DNA of 20,000 bases from Trichodelitschia bisporula (Eukaryota), in contig ML996690.1 of NCBI GenBank assembly GCA_010356995.1, positions 57,510 through 77,509 on the forward strand. The letters are read 5' to 3'. A program made the position numbers and the translations under genes. Shown here piece after piece: positions 272 through 19,222 of this stretch. Numbering within the stretch: the first letter of the stretch is position 1; the number at the start of each line of letters is the position of its first letter. Under the pieces are notes generated by a model. It was not told the origin of the DNA. It ran no database searches and saw nothing but the letters and a program-made list of their open reading frames with translations.

Positions 272-1112
272 TCACCTCCCCTCCTCCCCCTCAATCCACT
301 CCTCCAACCTCACCCCTCTTGTCCCATCCTCCACAACCAACCTCCACGTCGAAAACTCAAACCCCTCATAAAACTCCCCCGCCGCCCGTCGCGCCCTCGC
401 ATGTCCCGGCCCCTTCCCACCGCGATGCGCATCCGCGCGGCTATGCCAGATACCTATCCCATTAGCGCCTCCCCAGCACCGCACCACTCGCCTACTCACA
501 AGTCGCCAGATTCCGCCTCTCGCCATCCGTGTCCCCGAACCAGTACTTCAACAGGCCACCGCTGGCCACTGCCTCGACGTGGCTCCCCTCATCTAGCTCC
601 CCGAGACGCGTGCGGTAGGCCGCGCCTTTGTGCTTTAGGGTTGAGCGGAAGATGACTGTGTAGAAGGTCGTGTTGGTCCAGACGTGCTGTGTGGCGGTGC
701 AGAGGTCCCGCAGCAGCGCCAGCACGGCGGGCCAGTTGAACGACTCGAGGTACGGCGCCGTGGCGTAATCCGCCCGCGTCGGGGTCAAGGTCGTGAGGGC
801 TAGGCTGAGGAGGGCGGAGGCGCGGGGAAGGGGGGTCAGGTCTTGCGTGTGGAAGGGGGTGTTGTAAGGGGAGGTTATAAGGCGGTGGACCGTGGTTGGG
901 AGTTGGAAGAACGAGGAGATGGTGGGCGTGAGGAGGGGAGTTAGTTGGAGGGCTGCTGCGGCGTGGAAGCGGAGGGCGGTGGAGGAGGTGGTTATTAGGT
1001 CCGGAGAGAGGATTGAGATAGACGCTGCTTCGACCGGTGGAGTAAGCGGCGGAGTCGCCCCGATCGTGGTAGAGGGGGGGGTGATGTGCTTCGGCTCGAG
1101 CTGGAGAGCCAT
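272..1112 (-). CDS. UPF0643-like conserved fungal protein; 2 exons (1112-500, 453-272)
   Basis: ORF 492..1112 has ISSPY-like, ESFNW, FYTVIFRS and GGLLKYWFG...RRNLATC motifs. A 46-nt intron 499-454 (GTGAGT...GCTAAT...ATAG) splits TGT (Cys) and joins to IWHSRADAHRGGKGPGH...LEEW, with the stop at 272. Confidence 0.8.
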
Positions 1113-1982
1113 GATGCTGGTGGTGACGGATGTGAGAAAAGAAGATAGGGAGTTTGTTCACGATGTGTGAGAAGCAATGCGCGCTAGAGGATGACAGAGG
1201 ATGTACGGCTGTGGTGGAAGGTGTTTGCCAGTACGCCATTTCTGAGCCCGGAGCCGTGCGCGCACGGCGGTATGGCGTCAGATTACGCCATCGCTGTGAT
1301 GAAGTTTTGGGAAGGAGGGCGGTGGGAATGCGCGATGGCGTATATTGCGCGTTTGGTGTTTCGGGATGTCTCCTGGTACTTTTTGCGGGACGGCAATTAG
1401 GTCCGATGTCGCGGTCGCGGCCGAGGTCGCATTCTGTACCTCGCTGCTGGTGCATCTGAAGCTTCATGGTCGGATGGTTTTGGCGATCCGGTTCTTCTCA
1501 AGGTATAAATGATCTGACATGTGCGCCTACGATGGAAAGCCTGGTGGTTTTGAGGTAGACTTGGTGCGCAATATCATTGGCTCGTGATGCTGTTGTACCT
1601 AGATGGCGTCTGACAAGGCTGGCGTCCCCACTAGGGATCTTGTGCCCCCACATCACGAACCCCCACACTGTGAGGCTGAACTGTCGACAGCGTCAAAACC
1701 AATTCACGAAACAATGCACTTGGTTTAAACTTCACACTTAACATTTGATTAGACGGAGCATTTGAGCGGCATGCCAGATGAGTGAATTTTTCAGGATCTG
1801 GAAAGGCTTCATTTTGATGAGTGGAATTAGCCTTCCGATCGTCACCTCCCGTTGCAAGTGACGCCTTCCCATATCTCTCAGGCTTCCTTTGAGCTTTCTT
1901 TACTTTGGCCCCTAGGCTGACCCTCCTTCAACTGAACTTCCTCGCATGTCCGAAACCCTCCAGCGCTGGCAAGCTTACAGCC

Positions 1983-2228
1983 TCAGCTTGCATTACAACC
2001 GTTCCCGCCCGCATGCTTTCCCACGTCCTTTTCAGCCTTGCAACCACCACAGATTCGCCGCCCCCAAGGAACTGCAGCGACAAGATCGCGACCCTTGACC
2101 TCATGCCACCTCAAGCAGCCATCATTGGTGCCCTTCGCCTTTGGATGGGGCCTCTCGCATTCCTTGAGGATGTGAAGGAACGCCCGCTCGTCGCACTGTG
2201 TACAGTGCAGCATCACAGCTTCGCACAT
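1983..2228 (-). CDS. Small Cys-rich hypothetical protein (81 aa), possibly zinc-binding
   Basis: MCEAVMLHCTQC...C...C...CGGC. Its N-terminus matches 8 of the first 12 residues of the neighbouring 3738 gene (MCRAVELHCTSC). Confidence 0.55.
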   Translation of the reverse strand: MCEAVMLHCTQCDERAFLHILKECERPHPKAKGTNDGCLRWHEVKGRDLVAAVPWGRRICGGCKAEKDVGKHAGGNGCNAS

Positions 2229-2627
2229 TGTTTTGAATGAGGAATAACAGTGCTCTGAGTCGTTTGAGATATTCGAGTTTGCTTAAGGGGAGGAGATCTG
2301 GGGAAAACTTCAACCGCCGCTTTATGCTTCGGGATGTGTGACTTGAAGCTTCTGTGACGGCACGCCGCGGTGTCTTAGTCTTGTAACCCTTTTGGAAGAA
2401 GTGTATACGGAACAAAAGCATAGAACGAATGACATTATGGCATCAAGACATCAAGGTACTAGGGCATTAAGCAAACGCATGAAAGCCAGAACCGTTCTCC
2501 AATGTATCATTCGCCGCAAGGCTTCCAATCTCGTGTTCCAAGCATCATTCAAGACATCTGCCATTGCCGAAGCAGCTTTCCAACATGGCTCTGAGAGACC
2601 AAGTCATCCATCATTTTATCAACCAAA

Positions 2628-3738
2628 TTAATCGGTCGCGTCGATGGCGAAATCCTGTTCGACGATACCATTAAGGAAACGGTCGATGGCGCCGAAGCAA
2701 CGCTCTTCGATCTCCTAGATCCACATCAGCTTCACCAAACGGCATAAACCCAAACCCACTGACCATTTCAACTAATATCTCTCGAGCAAGCATGATGTCG
2801 TCGAGATCGCAATGCTCAACCTCCTTTATTCACATCAGCTCAATCTAGCGGCACGACCCCGAGTCCACTCACCACTTCAAATGACATCCCCTCATCCAGC
2901 ATAATGCCGTCAACGCGGCAATATTCGTCCTCCTGGATCCACATGAGCTCCGTCCAGCGGCATAAACCCGAACCCACTCACCACTTCAATTAACATCTCT
3001 CGATCAAACATGATGTCGTCGACACCACAATGTTCAACCTTCTAAATACACATCAGCTCCATCCAGCAGCATTACCCGAACCCACCCACCGCTTCCGGGG
3101 ACGTCCATCCATTGGGCATCATGGAGTCAACACTGCGATATTCGCCCTCCTGATACATATCACCTCCATCGAACGGCATGCAACCAAACCCCTCCATCAC
3201 CTCATATGACGCCCCCCGGCTGGCCGCGGCATGGGCGTCAAGAGCATCGAAGACGATATCGGGGATCTGGTTTTGCTGGACAGCCTACTCCACATAAGCT
3301 CATCCAACCGCAAAAAGTCCTCCCACTCACCCTCTCCGGCGTCCCCAAATCATGCACAGCACACGGCCTGTCCGGCGCCCCAATCCACAGCCGCGCCCGG
3401 CAAGGCCAGTCCAAACGTCCCAGTTCCGCCTCATCCATCATGACAAGCTCACTCTGAGGCGAGATCGAACTATACCCGCTGTCGCGTCGCTCGAGAACAA
3501 CGATACCGGGACTTTCAAGAGCAAGTTTGACGACCGCATTAGCTTTCTCGGCTGGAGACGGGAGCTTGACACACCCGCAGTGGCGCGTGGTGAAGGGGAT
3601 GGTGTCGAGGAGGGCTATGGTCATGTCGACGCGCATCCGGGACTGCTTGGAACATGCTTCTCCCCATTGACAGCAGTAAAGGAGGTGCTCGTACTTGCTT
3701 GCGCAGGACGTGCAGTGCAACTCCACGGCACGGCACAT
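2628..3738 (-). CDS. Hypothetical protein (~289 aa) with a Cys-rich N-terminus and acidic 20-aa repeats; exons 3738-3331, 3284-3090, 3041-2982, 2932-2873, 2823-2764, 2714-2628
   Basis: Removing five GT-AG phase-0 introns (3330-3285, 3089-3042, 2981-2933, 2872-2824, 2763-2715) gives one continuous frame ending ...FAIDATD-TAA at 2628. Retaining any one of them causes a frameshift or a stop. Confidence 0.7.
2715..3200. repeat. Diverged tandem repeat, period 108-109 bp (60-nt exon + 48/49-nt intron), about 4.5 copies
   Basis: The plus-strand motif CACAT(C/G)AGCT...GCAT/GCAC...CCACT recurs near 2722, 2831, 2940 and 3050, with a more diverged copy near 3156. Confidence 0.9.
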
Positions 3739-4540
3739 GTTGTGCGGCTATCAATGGGGTCGCTCTGGGGTGAGGATGTGGGAGAATGTGGAAGTCTGCG
3801 AATAGTGAGCTGAGGATAGGGTGTGGTGGTGCACTCACGAGGCTGAGGGCAAAAGTGTTGACCACAACTGGACACTGGAGAACGGAGAAATGGAAAAACG
3901 CTTAAATGCACGACTACTCGCTGATAGTGATGTTGCGTGAAATGTGCTCGTCCCAACGGCATACTTGTAGGCCATGTATATACTCCTTCCAGCTTGTAAG
4001 TCGCTCCTTCCCAAGGCCACGACAGTACGTCGGATGGACTATGTTGACCGCTGGGCTAGATTTGTTGTCGACACCAATTACGAATCCGAAGCCGCCCTGG
4101 AGTATTATTGCACCTTTGAAAAATGGGTCCTTCAAAAGTCCTATTCATGTCTTGTGGATACGCTACACCCGAAGCAGTCCTGATAGAAAGCCCTGTTGAT
4201 GTCGTGTTGATGCAGTATACCCCAAGCAGTAACTGTGGTCAAGGTGAAGGAAGGAACGCACGAGGGCATCATCCGACATGACGATAACTGCGAACCATAA
4301 GCATACATTGATGACTGTACAGCAGAGCACATGTGGTGAAGATAAAGCGCAGCAACAAGAAGCCCGACCCAACCCGACGCAAGCCAGATTCAAACTTACC
4401 GCAGAAGCCAAACCAGATACACACAGTTCAGTGCGAACTCACCGTGCAAGCCAAACCGAGCGTACACACCTCAAATCCGACCAAACGGTCAGCCATACCC
4501 ACCTCACCCCCTCTCCACACGCAAACACCATCCCCAGCAC

Positions 4541-5320
4541 CTAAACCTCCTCCCAACTTGGATACGCCTCCAGCGCCTTCCCCATCGTAACCTCAAGCCC
4601 ATCCCACTCATCCGCCGCCCTTGCCCTCACACCGGCATACCGATCCCCGAGCGCAGCTCGGAACGCCTATAGTCATCAAGCATTAGCCCAGTCTCAAACA
4701 TCTACCAAATTCCCCCTCCCGCCCACCCGACCGGGACTCAGGGACAAGTACTCACATCCAGCACCAACCGCTGCCGATGCAAGCAGTGCGCAAGGGACGC
4801 ATAGAACCCCCCCGTCGTCTTGAGCACATCGCGCTGCTCCATGAGCAGGTGCAGCATGCGGCCGTGCTCGGAGACGAACTGCCCCCCCATTAGTCTCCCC
4901 CCTCCGATCCCGGGGACATAACTCACATTCCCCACCGCCGCCCCCAGCGCGCGCTCATCCGCCCCTCCCTCACTCAGCAAGTCCCCCTCATCCTCCGCCC
5001 TAAGCTCGCGAATCGACAGATTCGCAATTCCCGAGATCCTCTGCAGGAGGAGCAGAATCTCCTTTATACACAGTGGTTTCATCAGCCGTGCCCTTGCCCA
5101 CTCTGTAATCCCAAAACGAAGGGGATGGAGGACCTACGGGGGCGATATAACAATAAGCCTCCTCACTCAACAACCCATAGCACTCCCCATCCTCCCTAAT
5201 ACACCCGAGCGCCACATCCAACGCCCCGCACGCCGCGCGCATATCCTCCAGATTCGCCTTCAAGGGGCTCCAGGTGCCTGACGCTGAGGTCGGCAGCGCA
5301 GGATGACTCAAAAACGGCAT
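4541..5320 (-). CDS. Helical hypothetical protein (188 aa), distantly UVI-1-like; exons 5320-5138, 5061-4927, 4878-4756, 4666-4541
   Basis: Three phase-0 introns: GTAGGT..GCTGAT..AAG, GTGAGT..CTAAT..CAG and GTGAGT..GCTAAT..TAG. The spliced frame MPFLSHP...NFVSEHGRMLHLL...VLDAFRAAL...LEVTMGKALEAYPSWEEV* is open. The family assignment rests on a recalled pattern only. Confidence 0.65.
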
Positions 5321-6400
5321 TCTCGTAGTAACCTTATCTTTCTCCTCCTGAATCGTTTCCAAAATGAAAGAGGAGAAACAAGACGGGAAGCAAACCGGCA
5401 GAGAAGACACTCGGAGAGATACCCAGCGCGGAAGTCCCCGGGCCACGCGAGCCCACGACCGCGTGCGGAGCATGTCTTTATCTCTCCCCTCGACCCTGGC
5501 GAGCACGCAAGCCTGATCCTCCCAGCTTCAAGCCTAGATCCGTTCACCATCGCTCGATAGATAGCCCGCTCCAAGCCGGATCCCACGGCCGAACGCACAA
5601 TCCATCCCATACACGCTTCCCCCGCACAAACAGCTTCCTCCAGCCCTCCTAATCCCCCAATATCCGCCGTCAATTGCGCCGTCGTCCGTCTTTGATTCGA
5701 ATGCTTGCATTCCTCCCAAGCGCGCCGAGACTCCGACGTCATTCACATGTCACCCCTCACTCACCCCCACCCCCCCAGTAATGCGCCCCACATGACGCGC
5801 CCCACCAGCAAATCACACACTCCCCCAGCCCTATCGCGATCCACACCAGGCCGATCGAGTCCGATCCGGCACGTGCCGAGCCGTAAGCTGCCGCGTCGTC
5901 GGATACGGATATCGAGGCCGCATGCAGCCGGCCGAACTTACAGCACAAAGAACGCTCTCCTCCCACTCCGCGAACGCAGCGGAAAACGCAGACGGAAACG
6001 AAACCGAGCAAAGTCCACCCCGAACATCCTAGTTCGACCGTCCCATCCCGGTCCGTTTCAAAAATAGCCCATCCAAAGAAGCTTCCTCCACCCCGCAGAT
6101 AAATCCCCCCACTTACGGGGCACGGCAACACCATCAAGCGCCACATAAAAGGCTTGTCCAGGCCCCTGGAGCCCTGTCATTTGCGCTGTAATGCCTATCT
6201 GCCGGGTGAACATTTTGTTCCTTCCGAGGGCCGCGTCGCCTCATCTATCAATTCATCTTCTGCCTGCCCCGCCGTTTGATAGTGATCCTCCCACTGCCCT
6301 ACCTCGCCATCAAAGTGATCCTCCCCGCCTGCCCTACCCCGCTGTCAACGGCGCCACCCCGCACCACGAATGATCGTCAGCAAGGTCCCGTTACGTCTAG

Positions 6401-10457: not shown

Positions 10458-11565
10458 TCACTCCCTCCCCGCCCAACGCCCCCTCCTCACCCGCGCCGCC
10501 GGCGTCGCCCTCGGCCCATCAAGCGTAGAGACAGCACCCTCCGTCACAGGTCCCGGCCCACCACCCACCGGGACGGTAGCCGCATCCCCCTCGCCCTGCC
10601 CCTCCGGCAATGCCGGCGGCGCACTCGTTGCCGGGGCCTCCTCCGCCCCCGAAGCGGGCGTTTCGTTCGCCGCAGCGCGCTGGCGGCCCTCATTCTCCTT
10701 CGCAAAGACCCTTAGGAGATTTTCCTCCCCAAGCGCGCCCTGGCTAAACCTAGCATTGAACTTCACAACGCGCTTAAACGCATTATAACTCTCGACATCG
10801 AGCGGAAGCGGCTCCGTCGCAAGTAGGAACGTAACCCCCTCCTTGCAGGGCGGTGTCGTCAAACTACCAGCATACGCGCGGAGCGGCGTGCTCGTGATGT
10901 GCTTCGCGATATCAGCCATATCAGCCGCTTCCCCCAGCGGTGTCGCGGTGCCGGGATTAGCGATGGCGGGGAGCGCGGCGGCGAGGGCTTTGACCAGCGG
11001 TGTTGCGGCGGTGGTGGAGAGGTCGAAGAGCAGTGCTACGACGACGAGGGAGCCGTCTGAGGGGGCTTCGTGCACCATGTGCATTTCGAGCGGGTAGTGC
11101 TCGTCGGACACGCGGTGCTCGGCCGGGGTGTGGAAGTGGAATTGTTTCAGACTGTATGCCTTGCCGTCGAAGGTGAGCGCGGAGGTGTTACCGCTGGCTT
11201 CGGAGAGGACTTCGACGGTTGAGCCGAGGTTTTCGAAGGTTAGGGGGCCCGTCGGGAGGGTGTAGCTTGTGGGGTTGGGGGCGGTAGCGATGCTGGAGTC
11301 TGCTTGGGGGTTAGGTTTGTTGGGTTGGAGGGGGGGAGGGGAAGGTACCGATGTTGATGGGCGATTGGAAGCGGCCTGCGCTGCAGGCTACGTTGTCGGC
11401 GGAGAGGGAGTCCCAGAGGACAGGCCCGGTTGTACCGGTGTAGCCGAATTTGGCGACTTCGATGGTGTTGTTGCCTGTTGAGCGGCGGGGGAGGTAGGAT
11501 GTGCCGTGGAGGCAGCTGGCGGAGGCGAGGCCGGCCAGCGCGGCGAGGGGGAGGAGAGTGTACAT
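10458..11565 (-). CDS. Secreted alpha-class carbonic anhydrase (352 aa); exons 11565-11349, 11299-10458
   Basis: Signal peptide MYTLLPLAALAGLASA, QSPINI, zinc ligands in QFHFH...EH...EMHMVH, YAGSLTTPPCKEGV and FNAR. The 49-nt intron 11348-11300 reads GTACCT...CTAAC...CAG. Confidence 0.95.
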
Positions 11566-12814: not shown

Positions 12815-12874
12815 TGCTTGCTTGATTGCTTGCTTGCTTGCGTGCTTGCTTGCTTGCTTGCTTGCGTGCGTGCG

Positions 12875-12915
<41 letters not shown>

Positions 12916-12919
12916 GCTT
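12815..12919. repeat. (GCTT)n tetranucleotide microsatellite with GCGT/ACTT/GATT variants
   Basis: About 26 tetramer units, read directly. Confidence 0.95.
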
Positions 12920-13885: not shown

Positions 13886-16197
13886 CTACAACTTAACCCC
13901 CCAAACCCCCCTCCCCCCCGCAACACCCACCCACTCCCCCCCCTGCGCCGTAAGCGCACTCTGCGGCGCCCAACTGAGGTTCGCAACCTCATACTCACAC
14001 CGCCAACTCGCGGCGGGGCCCTTCAAACTCACGCCCTGTCCCTGCGTGCTCGTCCCCGGCGCCCCAGCCGCACCCCCCTGCTGCTGGCCGCCCGAAGGCG
14101 TCGCCGCATTCCCACTAACCGGCGCGGGGATCGCCGCGTCGCCATTAAGCACGGCACCGTTATGCGAGTTCAACAAATCCCAGACTAAGACGAGAGAGTC
14201 ATCGGCGCCGGACGCGAGCATACCCCTTCGGTTAGGCGCCCATTCCACCGCCGTGATAGGCGCGGCGTGGCCGCGCAGCTCGAGGAGTGCCTGCCCCGGC
14301 TGGCGCACGTCCAGGATGCGGATTATATTGCTGTCGGCCGCGAAGGTGGCGAGGAGGTGGGAGTCGTGCGGCGAGGCGGCGAGGCGCAGGAGGGGTGGGG
14401 CGTAGGTCAGGGTTTGCTGGGCGCGGGTGGGGGACATGCGGTCTGGTGTGCCTGGGGGGTTAGATACGAAAGATTGGGGGGGGCGGGGGGGAGGGGGGGG
14501 CGTACCTTTGTCCTTGTCGCCTGGTTGCTTGTCCGAGGGCTCGTAGATGATGGTGCTGTGCTCCAGACTGCGCAGATCGAACATGCGGACGCTGCCGTCT
14601 GCGCCGCAGCTGACGAAGACGTCGACGCTGCCGGCGCAGAAGCGCACGTCGAAGACCTCCTTGTCGTGGGCGATGAGCTGCGTCTTTGCGGTCAGGGTAG
14701 GGATGTCCCAGATTGTGCATGTCGTGTCGATGCTGCTCGTGATGATCAGCTTCGGGGACAGCGTGTTCCAGTCCAATGACGTGAGCGGCGCCGTGTGCTC
14801 TGGCGTCTTGGAGTTGGATAGCAATGCCAGCGGCGTCAGCTTCTGCGGGGCCGGTTCGCGCGTGTTAACGCTCGACGAACGCGTGATTGTGCTGGATATA
14901 TTGGCCGATGGGGGCGTCGAAGGCAGCGACCACAGCCGCAGGTGGTCGCCTGACGTCGCTAGCAGGTCCGTCGACTGTTTCTGCGAGATAGGGGGCTCCC
15001 ACAGGATGCGAGTTACGGGATACGAGCAGGTAGCCTCAGCGATGCGCGTGTACTCGAGCCCGAACGGCGGAGCGCCTGGCATCGTCACTTCCTGCGGCGT
15101 AATGGTCGTGTCCAAGATTTGGATCTGAACAGCATTAAACAAGGCGACATAAAAGGGGGCGAAAGCCCAGCAACGGGTAAACCCAAACGTACGAAATTAT
15201 GCGGGTCCTCGAGATAGCTCCCCACAGCAATCTTGCCAGCGCTATTACCCTGCGGCACCGGGTACTTGCACCAGTCAAAGGCAAACACCGCCCACGGCGC
15301 GAGGTAGTTGCTGTTCGTCGGCTGCTTATTGTCGACCTGGTCACCAAACATAGCCGTACCCGTCATAACCTCATCGCCCATATTCGAGTTAGCGCGCGGA
15401 CGGATCTGATCCAGCGCCAGCGGCGAATGCGACACGGCGCTGTTGGGCGTCTGCGACGAGAAGAGCTTCTGGCTCGGCGTCTGCGAGGAGTACTTTTGCG
15501 GGTCTGGGTTCGCGCCGAACGGCACGTACTTTTGCTCCAGGCCCGCGGGACTCGACCGCGAGTGCGAGTGCGAAGTGTTCATGGTGTTGGAGCGCGTCGG
15601 CAGCGTATATTGCTGCGCGTTGGTGTTGATGTGCGGGACTGTGGGGACCGTCGACGGCGCCGTGTACACTGATTGTGGGGGCGGACGGCCTGACGCGGGC
15701 TGCAGACTGCCTGGCACGCCGGAGGACATGGAGGAGTACATGTTCATTTGCTGAGCAGATTGGGAGTAGTCGGTAGGTGTGGAAGAGTATAGCTGTTGCT
15801 GCTGCTGCTGGGTCTGGCTCGGCAAGTGGGCCGGCTGCGAACTGGGCATCTGAATGTCCTCTGGAAGTCTCGCCATTTGTGCGCGACGAGCGTCGAACTG
15901 CTGATACTGGCTAGAAGCGGACGAGGGGGTTGTGGGCATCGCCAGTGAGGACTGCGAGTGCTGCGAGTGCTGCGAGTGCTGCGGGGCACTCTGCTGGCCC
16001 GAGAGAAGCACGTCGGTGCCGGCTGTCGTGGTGCCTGCGGTCGCAGTGCGCAGATTGCCCGTTGGCGCACCGATAGAGCCCAGAGCCTGGGCGGCCTGAA
16101 AGAGGCCCGCTACAGCGCCGGGCTGAGTGGGTGGGTTGGTGTTGTTGGTGCTTGGGTTTGAAGAGCTTTGGTGGTGAGAATGAGAATGGAAGGGCAT
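13886..16197 (-). CDS. DCAF7/WDR68/AN11-family WD40 protein (yeast YPL247C-like) with a long Q/S-rich N-terminus; exons 16197-15193, 15124-14506, 14451-13886
   Basis: LLATSGDHLRLW, APLTSLDWN, SSIDTTCTIWD, KTQLIAHDKEVFDV, GADGSVRMFDLRSLEHSTIIYE and PLLRL. Intron 15192-15125 (GTACGT..CAG); probable in-frame intron 14505-14452 (GTACGC..CTAAC..CAG). The start codon is uncertain. Confidence 0.92.
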
Positions 16198-17127: not shown

Positions 17128-17234
17128 ACATACAGCAGATGGGATTCGCTGCTGGTCACCCACGCAACTACTAGTCAACCGGTTCAAAGCTTAACTTCAG
17201 TGAGCAGACGGGGACTGGTGTTCTCTTTGACCTG
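17128..17234 (-). rRNA. 5S rRNA gene, 5' end cut off by the assembly gap
   Basis: Reverse complement has GTTAAGC, TAGTAGTTGCGTGGGTGACCAGCAGCGAATCC and the 3' end GCTGTATGT, followed by an oligo-T Pol III terminator. Confidence 0.9.
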
Positions 17235-17739
17235 NNNNNNNNNNNNNNNNNNNNNNNNNNNNNNNNNNNNNNNNNNNNNNNNNNNNNNNNNNNNNNNNNN
17301 NNNNNNNNNNNNNNNNNNNNNNNNNNNNNNNNNNNNNNNNNNNNNNNNNNNNNNNNNNNNNNNNNNNNNNNNNNNNNNNNNNNNNNNNNNNNNNNNNNNN
17401 NNNNNNNNNNNNNNNNNNNNNNNNNNNNNNNNNNNNNNNNNNNNNNNNNNNNNNNNNNNNNNNNNNNNNNNNNNNNNNNNNNNNNNNNNNNNNNNNNNNN
17501 NNNNNNNNNNNNNNNNNNNNNNNNNNNNNNNNNNNNNNNNNNNNNNNNNNNNNNNNNNNNNNNNNNNNNNNNNNNNNNNNNNNNNNNNNNNNNNNNNNNN
17601 NNNNNNNNNNNNNNNNNNNNNNNNNNNNNNNNNNNNNNNNNNNNNNNNNNNNNNNNNNNNNNNNNNNNNNNNNNNNNNNNNNNNNNNNNNNNNNNNNNNN
17701 NNNNNNNNNNNNNNNNNNNNNNNNNNNNNNNNNNNNNNN
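17235..17739. other. Assembly gap (505 N)
   Basis: Run of N. Confidence 1.
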
Positions 17740-17832
17740 TGGTCACCCACGCAACTACTAGTCAACCGGTTCAAAGCTTAACTTCAGTGAGCAGACGGGG
17801 ACTGGTGTTCTCTTTGACCTGTGGCCGTATGT
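17740..17832 (-). rRNA. 5S rRNA gene, 3' end cut off by the assembly gap
   Basis: Starts ACATACGGCCACAGGTCAAAGAGAAC at 17832. Positions 17740-17821 are identical to 17153-17234. Confidence 0.9.
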
Positions 17833-18127: not shown

Positions 18128-18464
18128 GATGGACTGTATCGTTAATTAAATAATACCTGGCAAAAAAGACGGAAGCATTGTCAAAAGAAGTGTTAGCTCT
18201 CCGAGCGAGAGCGTTCTTGGGTTGGAATAGGGGACGTGCGTTAAGCTGCGGAGCATCTCCCCTCGATCAGCCGGCTGAGCAGAAAGCTTCACGGACCACC
18301 TGAAAAATTATCATGGCTACCTCGCCTGGCAGATTTTGCGGACGGGACAGCTATGACTTTTTCGGCTGGTCCTTCGGCCAGAGTGTCGGTTTACATTAAG
18401 TTTCGGAGCTCCTCCCGCTGAACGGGCCGATCAGCAAGCTTCCGTGGTGCAAAAAGGTCAAAAA

Positions 18465-18580
18465 ACATACAGCAACTGGGATTCGCTGCTGGTCACCCAC
18501 GCAACTACTAGTCAACCGGTTCAAAGCTTGACTTCGGTGAGCAGACGGGGACTGGTGTTCTCTTTGGCCTGTGTCTATGT
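18465..18580 (-). pseudogene. 5S rRNA copy with a damaged 5' end (116 nt), likely pseudogene
   Basis: 5' end is ACATAGACACAGGCC against ACATACGGCCACAGGTC: a 2-nt deletion that disrupts helix I. Further substitutions lie near box A. The T-run terminator is retained. Confidence 0.7.
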
Positions 18581-19222
18581 CGAGTCCCCATTAGGACACC
18601 GCCCTCGGTAACATTTTAATACGGGTTTACCTCATCATATTTATCCTCGTAAAAATACTGTGCTATGCTTGGCCGGCTAGATTTGAATTCGAAAACGTCT
18701 TATCTCTGACCTGTGTCCGTATCCTTAGTTCAATGGGAAAAGTGCTCAATCCGGAGTAGCCTATGCATTGTCATCCTTGCAAGCCAATACTTTCCTCCGT
18801 CTTGCCGCTAAATCCAGCGCCAGATTTCCTTTAATTGGAAATTACTGACGCGCTAAGTGATTTTAGATGGGCAGTAACATGTGCTCGTCCTGCCCTCCGC
18901 ATTGAACCACAACGCCTCCCTTAAATCACCCCGTCTTCGGCCTGTCGCCGCCTCCTTTCTCCAGAACCGGCCCGGTTGGACCTGCAAGCGAAGTATCTTG
19001 AGTATCGGAAGGGACATATCTCAATTAAGCGGGGGCGCCTGTTAGGACCCCTATTCCGTCTTCACAGTGTCAGCTCTGCCTCAACGTGACTCAGGCAGCA
19101 CTACCCCGCACTCCGATTCTCCGAGTGGGGTGGCTAGGGGGCTAAGTGTGGGGTTGTACCGTGGTGAGGGAAGGGAAGACGAGCTGAGGCAGTGGCGCAG
19201 GTGGCGAGTGGGTTGCTGGCAC

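Follow-up and report, generated by a model that had tools for sequence, protein, structure and literature searches.

A gene on the minus strand of the analysed window, a stretch of 20,000 nt, carries six homologous copies of one short intron together with copies of the exon sequence beside it. The array very probably arose by multiplication of a pre-existing intron through segmental duplication inside this one gene, a mechanism that is already known. We somewhat favour a reading in which this one array records both the multiplication and the death of an intron: five sister copies would keep their splice signals as their retention is costly, and a stop-free sister with a length divisible by three would have become coding, perhaps with cassette skipping in addition.

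The array gene and its public gene model

Contig C4, which contains the window, belongs to a genome of 25.8 Mb in 44 contigs, and the best named relatives of a WD40 gene at 13.9-15.1 kb are found in dothideomycete fungi (74-76% identity). The frame of the array gene runs from an ATG at 3738 to a TAA at 2630-2628 and comprises 289 codons when five introns are removed (Table 1). Eight cysteines fall within residues 1-65. The ORF track had been said to miss the array, but the gene is present in public annotation: a database protein of 291 aa (P0121), labelled at its source as a hypothetical protein of Trichodelitschia bisporula and forming a single-member cluster, is identical to it over the first 136 codons and models four of the five introns nearly as the initial annotation did. 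P0121 uses an earlier acceptor for I3, whereas an RNA contig agrees with the acceptor of the initial annotation, and one acceptor of the public gene model is wrong. For I1, the acceptor in P0121 lies 9 nt downstream of the site homologous to the other copies (3276-3284, minus strand); the frame is kept by both.

The unspliced frame ends after 166 aa at a stop at 3238, as had been stated. Retention of I2, I3 or I4 alone, with everything downstream, gives 206, 244 or 251 aa in place of the 289 of the spliced frame, and an in-frame TAA lies within I2 if it is retained.

Table 1. Coding segments and intron copies of the array gene, in the direction of transcription.
Feature	Description	Positions	Strand	Evidence
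Exon 1	coding part, 136 codons	3331..3738	-	equals residues 1-136 of P0121
I1	intron, 46 nt, most diverged sister copy, predicted	3285..3330	-	sequence homology
U0	exon segment of 87 nt, probably a unit that has diverged and grown longer	3198..3284	-	weak: global z 2.8-4.4, local z 0.9-2.8 against U1-U4
Ix	sixth intron homologue, 48 nt, candidate de-intronized copy	3150..3197	-	homology; coding in P0121
U1	unit of 60 nt in the odd class, sister to U3	3090..3149	-	homology; 3090-3117 inside spliced contig
I2	intron, 48 nt, spliced	3042..3089	-	RNA joint 3041/3090
U2	phase-0 exon of 60 nt in the even class, sister to U4	2982..3041	-	RNA joints on both sides
I3	intron, 49 nt, spliced	2933..2981	-	RNA joint 2931/2981 (cut +1)
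U3	60-nt phase-0 exon	2873..2932	-	homology; spliced contig
I4	intron, 49 nt, AAG acceptor, predicted	2824..2872	-	sequence signals
U4	60-nt phase-0 exon	2764..2823	-	homology
I5	intron, 49 nt, predicted	2715..2763	-	sequence signals
U5	last coding segment, 28 codons and TAA, diverged unit	2628..2714	-	weak: global z of 1.0-3.1 with U1-U4; inside X1 contig 2459-2715

Homologous introns in a 109-nt array

All five introns begin with GT and end with AG, all are in phase 0, and a CTNAT branch motif stands 11-12 nt before every intron end. A tandem array with a period of 109 nt is called by TRF at 2712-3095 (score 353, 3.5 copies, 73% matches), and peaks of the autocorrelation fall at 109 and 218. 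In pairwise comparison I2-I5 have 34-40 of 49 nt in common, and their interiors, stripped of the ends, score z 7.4-10.4 against shuffles. I1 is more weakly related to the other five copies (z 2.8-4.6), and its range overlaps that of four unrelated neighbour introns used as a control (z -1.8 to 3.3 in 24 pairs). Each copy was therefore scored against the other five and compared with genome candidates, namely all 44 intron-like segments of 40-60 nt with the same signals in 200 kb of the genome, and none of these reached the score of any of the six copies. The mutual homology of five introns of 46-49 nt, with all coordinates and GT...AG borders, was verified.

The units show a similar relationship. 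U1-U4 have 32-50 of 60 nt in common (z 5.3-13.6), with 53-83% identity among the exon copies, while the intron copies are 61-82% alike. Overall the array copies differ by 17-47%, and the earlier description of an array caught in the act was an overstatement. In length the array introns are close to two neighbouring spliced introns (46 and 48 nt), and the RNA folding of the copies is no better than that of shuffles (z -0.82 to 0.52), with no unusual structure.

Two smaller features were noted within the array. U0 is similar to the even class in its first 13 codons, where 19-21 of 39 nt agree with U2 and U4, and the acceptor region of I4 is a tandem NAGNAG (AAG then GAG; 2821-2826, minus strand) which could add or drop one codon.

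RNA evidence for splicing

Contigs from two runs of one sample (X1 and X2), the RNA nature of which was a guess, were compared with positions 300-6000 of the window. In one 151-nt X1 contig with a depth of 2.9, 48 nt are missing at 3041/3090 and a further 49 nt at 2931/2981, with CT..AC borders in either case. These skips match I2 and I3 exactly, hence splicing is shown for two of the five introns by one contig. Four introns of neighbouring genes, serving as positive controls, are also skipped across X1 and X2, and thus the two runs contain spliced RNA. I2 and I3 are really spliced.

Within the gene the cover of the two runs consists of the spliced contig, which starts at 3117, and a second contig at 2459-2715. 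U4 and positions 3118-3738 (exon 1, I1 and Ix) fall outside this cover, which proves nothing either way. The predicted junctions were thus seen in RNA for I2 and I3, and no joint was seen for I1, Ix, I4 or I5. By depth arithmetic 149 of the 151 contig letters could be placed, and the last two do not fit unspliced I4, a weak hint only of I4 splicing.

A sixth copy without donor and branch signals

The stretch between U0 and U1 (Ix) is homologous to I2-I5 with z 5.5-7.4. It has AT at the donor position where its sisters have GT and has lost the branch C, with the acceptor CAG intact; the earlier statement that every GT/AG pair was kept therefore holds for five of the six copies and fails at 3197-3150. 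Four of the ten signal sites of Ix have changed compared with none of 50 in I1-I5 (p 4e-4, in the star-tree test described below). The length of Ix is a multiple of three, and in the gene frame it forms 16 open codons with no stop. It is the only copy that can be read through in frame and the sole copy which lacks donor and branch signals. Since intact sisters lie on both sides of Ix, loss of signals in this copy is simpler than repeated gain elsewhere.

Judged from these features and from P0121, a predicted model which reads Ix as coding, it is probable that Ix now contributes 16 extra codons. As Ix is coding in P0121 and its alternative donor is weak, U1 would probably be the end of a 195-nt exon, leaving U2-U4 as the only true 60-nt exons. 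The four phase-0 units of 60 nt encode the 20-aa peptides originally quoted, but U1 would be a free-standing exon only if Ix were spliced.

Ix may instead still be an intron, the donor having slid 3 nt upstream to give a 51-nt phase-0 intron (3200-3150); the gene would then have six spliced introns and no exonization. A GT at 3200 after GAG, the intact CAG acceptor and the preservation of the frame agree with this. However, the donor would read GTGATG and lack the +5 G and +6 T present in all six introns seen spliced, no CTNAY branch motif of the kind found in those six introns remains, and the stretch is coding in the P0121 prediction. We consider a 51-nt intron rather unlikely.

If Ix indeed went from intron to coding sequence, it would be a de-intronization with five built-in controls in which the consequences for the frame would be directly shown to maintain splice signals. 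De-intronization is reported as very rare, with no case in Cryptococcus (Roy 2009, PMC2740785) and one supported case in fission yeast (Zhu and Niu 2013, PMC3629103), and Ix, if confirmed, would add a case with paralogous controls. Like the published cases it has a length of 3n, is free of stops and has lost splice signals (PMC2740785, PMC3629103). In contrast to those, which rely on orthologues and transcripts, Ix is compared among tandem sister copies and is a candidate from its sequence (PMC2740785, PMC3629103). In fission yeast most signal-based candidates were disproved by transcripts, hence this is the main caution for Ix (PMC3629103).

Selection acts on splice signals

Ten signal columns (+1, +2, +5, +6, four branch positions, -2 and -1) were set beforehand from the fungal consensus. 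In tests that assume a star tree and draw the consensus from the same copies, none of the 50 signal sites of I1-I5 had changed in comparison with 37 of 191 sites elsewhere (Fisher p 1.1e-4), and I2-I5 alone gave 0/40 against 24/155 (p 0.005). The GT/AG dinucleotides alone are weaker evidence, their neutral chance being 0.08 for I2-I5 and 0.013 for I1-I5. Splice signals are conserved beyond neutral expectation. Retention of I5 still leaves a 291-aa frame, and so frame-keeping alone does not explain the intact signals of this intron.

Changes in the exon units showed no codon-position bias (15/13/13). With about 12 synonymous sites in each of the six pairs of U1-U4, dN/dS was 0.92 in the closest pair (U2/U4), 0.71, 0.91 and 0.94 in three others and 0.22 and 0.32 in the remaining two. 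The neutral chance of finding no stop in the four units is 0.18-0.37. Acidic residues number 24 against a neutral expectation of 19.2 (P about 0.04, uncorrected). Selection on the peptide or frame is not demonstrated in the four units by codon positions, dN/dS or the stop test. The proposal that splicing and frame are both under selection was thus borne out for the splice signals but not for frame or peptide.

The protein and a likely adjacent paralogue

No Pfam family was found for exon 1 or for 3090-3284. Among 826 candidates of 160-510 aa the only homologue was P0121, and among 1.84 billion representatives there were two matches, P0121 itself and P0122. The latter is a repetitive protein of 2903 aa with 26% identity over 64 residues and was judged spurious. 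None of 99 pattern matches in metagenome contigs was confirmed, and no orthologue came to light in these searches. Residues 137-291 of P0121 contain 39 D/E and 8 K/R. The Atlas model of P0121 is unconfident (pLDDT 0.36), its Atlas matches are all under 0.9, and structure matches reach a TM of 0.32. We infer that the tail is most likely a low-complexity acidic appendage, tolerant of repeat growth, on a small cysteine-rich and probably metal-binding domain.

The adjacent downstream ORF (1986-2228, minus strand; 81 aa) is also cysteine-rich and is 30% identical over 71 aa to the N-terminus encoded by the array gene (pairwise E 8e-5). The X1 and X2 contigs do not cover it. From this similarity it is likely to be an old tandem paralogue that has no repeat tail. 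It resembles unnamed ascomycete clusters with a best score of 0.91, weak by the recognition value of the tool, and a homologue search gave no candidate. A second match to it (L008, E 0.25) was discarded, there being no similar gene in the three forward frames examined.

These observations bear on a further reading, in which the transcript undergoes splicing without a selected function of the protein, be it in the repeat tail or over the whole frame, and splicing is kept against message decay or for a role at the transcript level. The even distribution over codon positions, the dN/dS near 1 in the closest pair and an absence of stops compatible with neutrality all favour it, as does the lack of any homologue among the 1.84 billion representatives beyond the gene's own record and P0122. 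It is opposed by the two pairs with dN/dS of 0.22-0.32, by the slight acidic excess and by the resemblance of the N-terminus to the adjacent small ORF with its own weak likeness to ascomycete clusters. On balance we hold this reading to be the less probable one, though one to be taken seriously.

Cassette skipping

It had also been suggested that the phase-0 cassettes could be skipped so as to vary the repeat number at the RNA level. The phase permits this, since U2-U4 are symmetric exons of 60 nt, and the end of the spliced contig, placed by arithmetic 3 letters beyond U3, coincides with the point at which the starts of U4 and U5 diverge, as would be expected at a skip branch. Against this, no skip joint was seen in the X1 and X2 contigs, and a contig end at a depth of 3 can arise by chance. 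Fungal introns as short as these are usually recognised through intron definition, a mode that makes skipping less likely. Skipping appears improbable. The ends of contigs near the U4 borders were likewise considered as a sign of exon skipping and set aside as unproven; the end before U5 fits a branch with retained I5, at a depth of about 3.

Duplication history

Quartet analysis of U1-U4 gave six sites for U1+U3 versus U2+U4 and one and none for the alternatives, with bootstrap values of 99-100. This alternating kinship indicates that a 218-nt dimer was duplicated. The tree of the six intron copies, (I1, ((Ix, I3), (I2, I4)), I5), fits their linear order, with bootstrap values of only 43-63. 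Intron substitutions are not in excess at third positions (13/8/11), so that no fossil coding signal was found. Homology between exon and intron was not significant for the two consensus sequences (z 1.3; 238 of 2000 shuffles as good), and for the best of 24 exon-intron pairs 7 of 500 shuffles were as good. No copies were found elsewhere in the genome: the one DNA match and the pattern matches (4 and 3) all lie at the array, these counts being lower bounds.

We propose that the history began with an ordinary short spliceosomal intron, presumably a single one, lying in the 3′ part of an orphan gene that evolves rapidly. The whole intron and 60 nt of adjoining exon, about 109 nt in all, would then have been duplicated head to tail, probably via unequal crossing-over or slippage, and the kinship of the units shows that at least one step copied a two-unit block of 218 nt. 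As the intron is in phase 0 and the exon part has 20 codons, each copy adds one intron and 20 residues and leaves the frame unshifted. Copies whose retention would break the frame kept donor, branch and acceptor signals, as the statistics show, and splicing is shown for I2 and I3. The stop-free copy of 48 nt was probably freed of this constraint and lost its donor and branch signals. The resulting protein would be rich in cysteine at its N-terminus and end in a long acidic tail, probably disordered, with hardly any constraint on its exact sequence.

The order of events might be the reverse, with an ancestral coding repeat of 108 nt (still visible as Ix and U1) of which one copy gained donor and branch signals and was then multiplied. 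Ix does consist of exactly 16 open codons, and similar peptides result when I3 and I5 are translated in frame 0. However, I1, upstream of Ix, is homologous and has all ten signal sites intact, and the intron substitutions lack the third-position excess that a coding past would leave. If tandem duplication followed a simple course, the root falls between the first copy and the last; Ix is second in order and groups, with weak support, with I3, so that it would be derived. Five intronizations and no de-intronization were found in Cryptococcus (Roy 2009, PMC2740785), which speaks for this order of events, but we consider it quite improbable at this locus.

Repeated insertion of an introner-like or transposed intron into one gene is hardly credible: Dothideomycetes do carry introner-like elements (PMC3609843) and the host is a dothideomycete by its WD40 neighbour, but the exons were copied together with the introns at a constant period, the copies are short (46-49 nt) and not stably folded, and the genome search, which the initial annotation had named as the means to tell local duplication from introner-like elements, found matches only at this locus, again as lower bounds. 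Creation of introns by AGGT tandem duplication was rejected, as no derivation of the intron from exon is detectable and every unit changes the peptide by adding 20 codons.

Comparison with known systems

Multiplication of a pre-existing intron by segmental duplication is closest to what Collemare, van der Burgt and de Wit (2013, PMC3609843) described as same-gene duplication (SGD) introns, of which they counted 82 in 24 fungi, half of them segmental. As in the segmental cases there, the homologous introns are confined to one gene and the flanking exon is co-duplicated (weakly so for U0 and U5), and the array introns are likewise ordinary in length and folding energy (PMC3609843). Unlike the SGD introns, which are near-identical by BlastN, the array copies are 61-82% alike and might fall below that clustering (PMC3609843); the array also differs in its six copies, its dimer step and the one copy with lost signals.

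Internal duplications in Arabidopsis TOUCH3 were described as multiplication of a pre-existing intron, distinct from intron creation (Ma et al. 2016, PMC4974935), and the same paper credits Gao and Lynch (2009) with segmental duplications in which entire introns were included. In the present gene, too, a whole pre-existing intron was copied with exon on both sides, but here in a fungal orphan gene, with more copies and very short units. The initial annotation had spoken of intron gain by intragenic duplication. The duplication was indeed local, but in the terms of PMC4974935 it multiplied an existing intron and did not create one. The AGGT model (Rogers 1989 and Hellsten 2011, according to PMC4974935) derives an intron from a duplicated exon and leaves the peptide unchanged. 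The array shares with it the rise in intron number through tandem duplication, but here 20 residues come with every copy, and no homology between intron and exon is detectable. One intron gain by tandem duplication was reported in Neurospora (Sun et al. 2015, PMC4317165).

A large-scale analogue is provided by the 90-bp exon arrays of Tetrahymena (PMC6564038), in which symmetric exons of constant length are multiplied together with introns, there ascribed to unequal crossing-over. Those arrays occur in thousands of genes and encode a folded repeat under purifying selection (PMC6564038), whereas the present one concerns a single gene, is in phase 0 and encodes no known domain, with no peptide selection found.

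No literature on this locus was found in searches that covered mainly open-access papers and their main text, so that the SGD lists could include similar cases. The locus adds an example, not a principle, the mechanism being already known, and it is of value as a small experiment set up by nature. Of the six copies of a 49-nt intron that this gene contains, five have kept their splice signals, and the one that has not can be read through without harm. It also shows orphan fungal genes lengthening acidic tails while gaining introns.

Neighbouring features in the window

Upstream of the array gene, RNA from an expressed transcript at 4315-5718 (minus strand) has had three introns removed (joints 4665/4755, 4878/4927 and 5060/5137); a stretch of 106 codons scanned from this gene had no Pfam match. 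A gene at 450-1157 (minus strand) contains a 46-nt spliced intron (joint 451/498) and gave no Pfam match in the 207 codons scanned. Further along the window are an alpha-type carbonic anhydrase (PF00194) at 10458-11387 and a DCAF7/WDR68-like WD40 gene at 13886-15196, both on the minus strand. A run of N at about 17200-17750 lies between two copies of the same short sequence, of which a third copy occurs near 18400-18600, and marks an assembly gap inside a local repeat. Finally, a TGCT microsatellite of 26 copies occupies 12815-12919.
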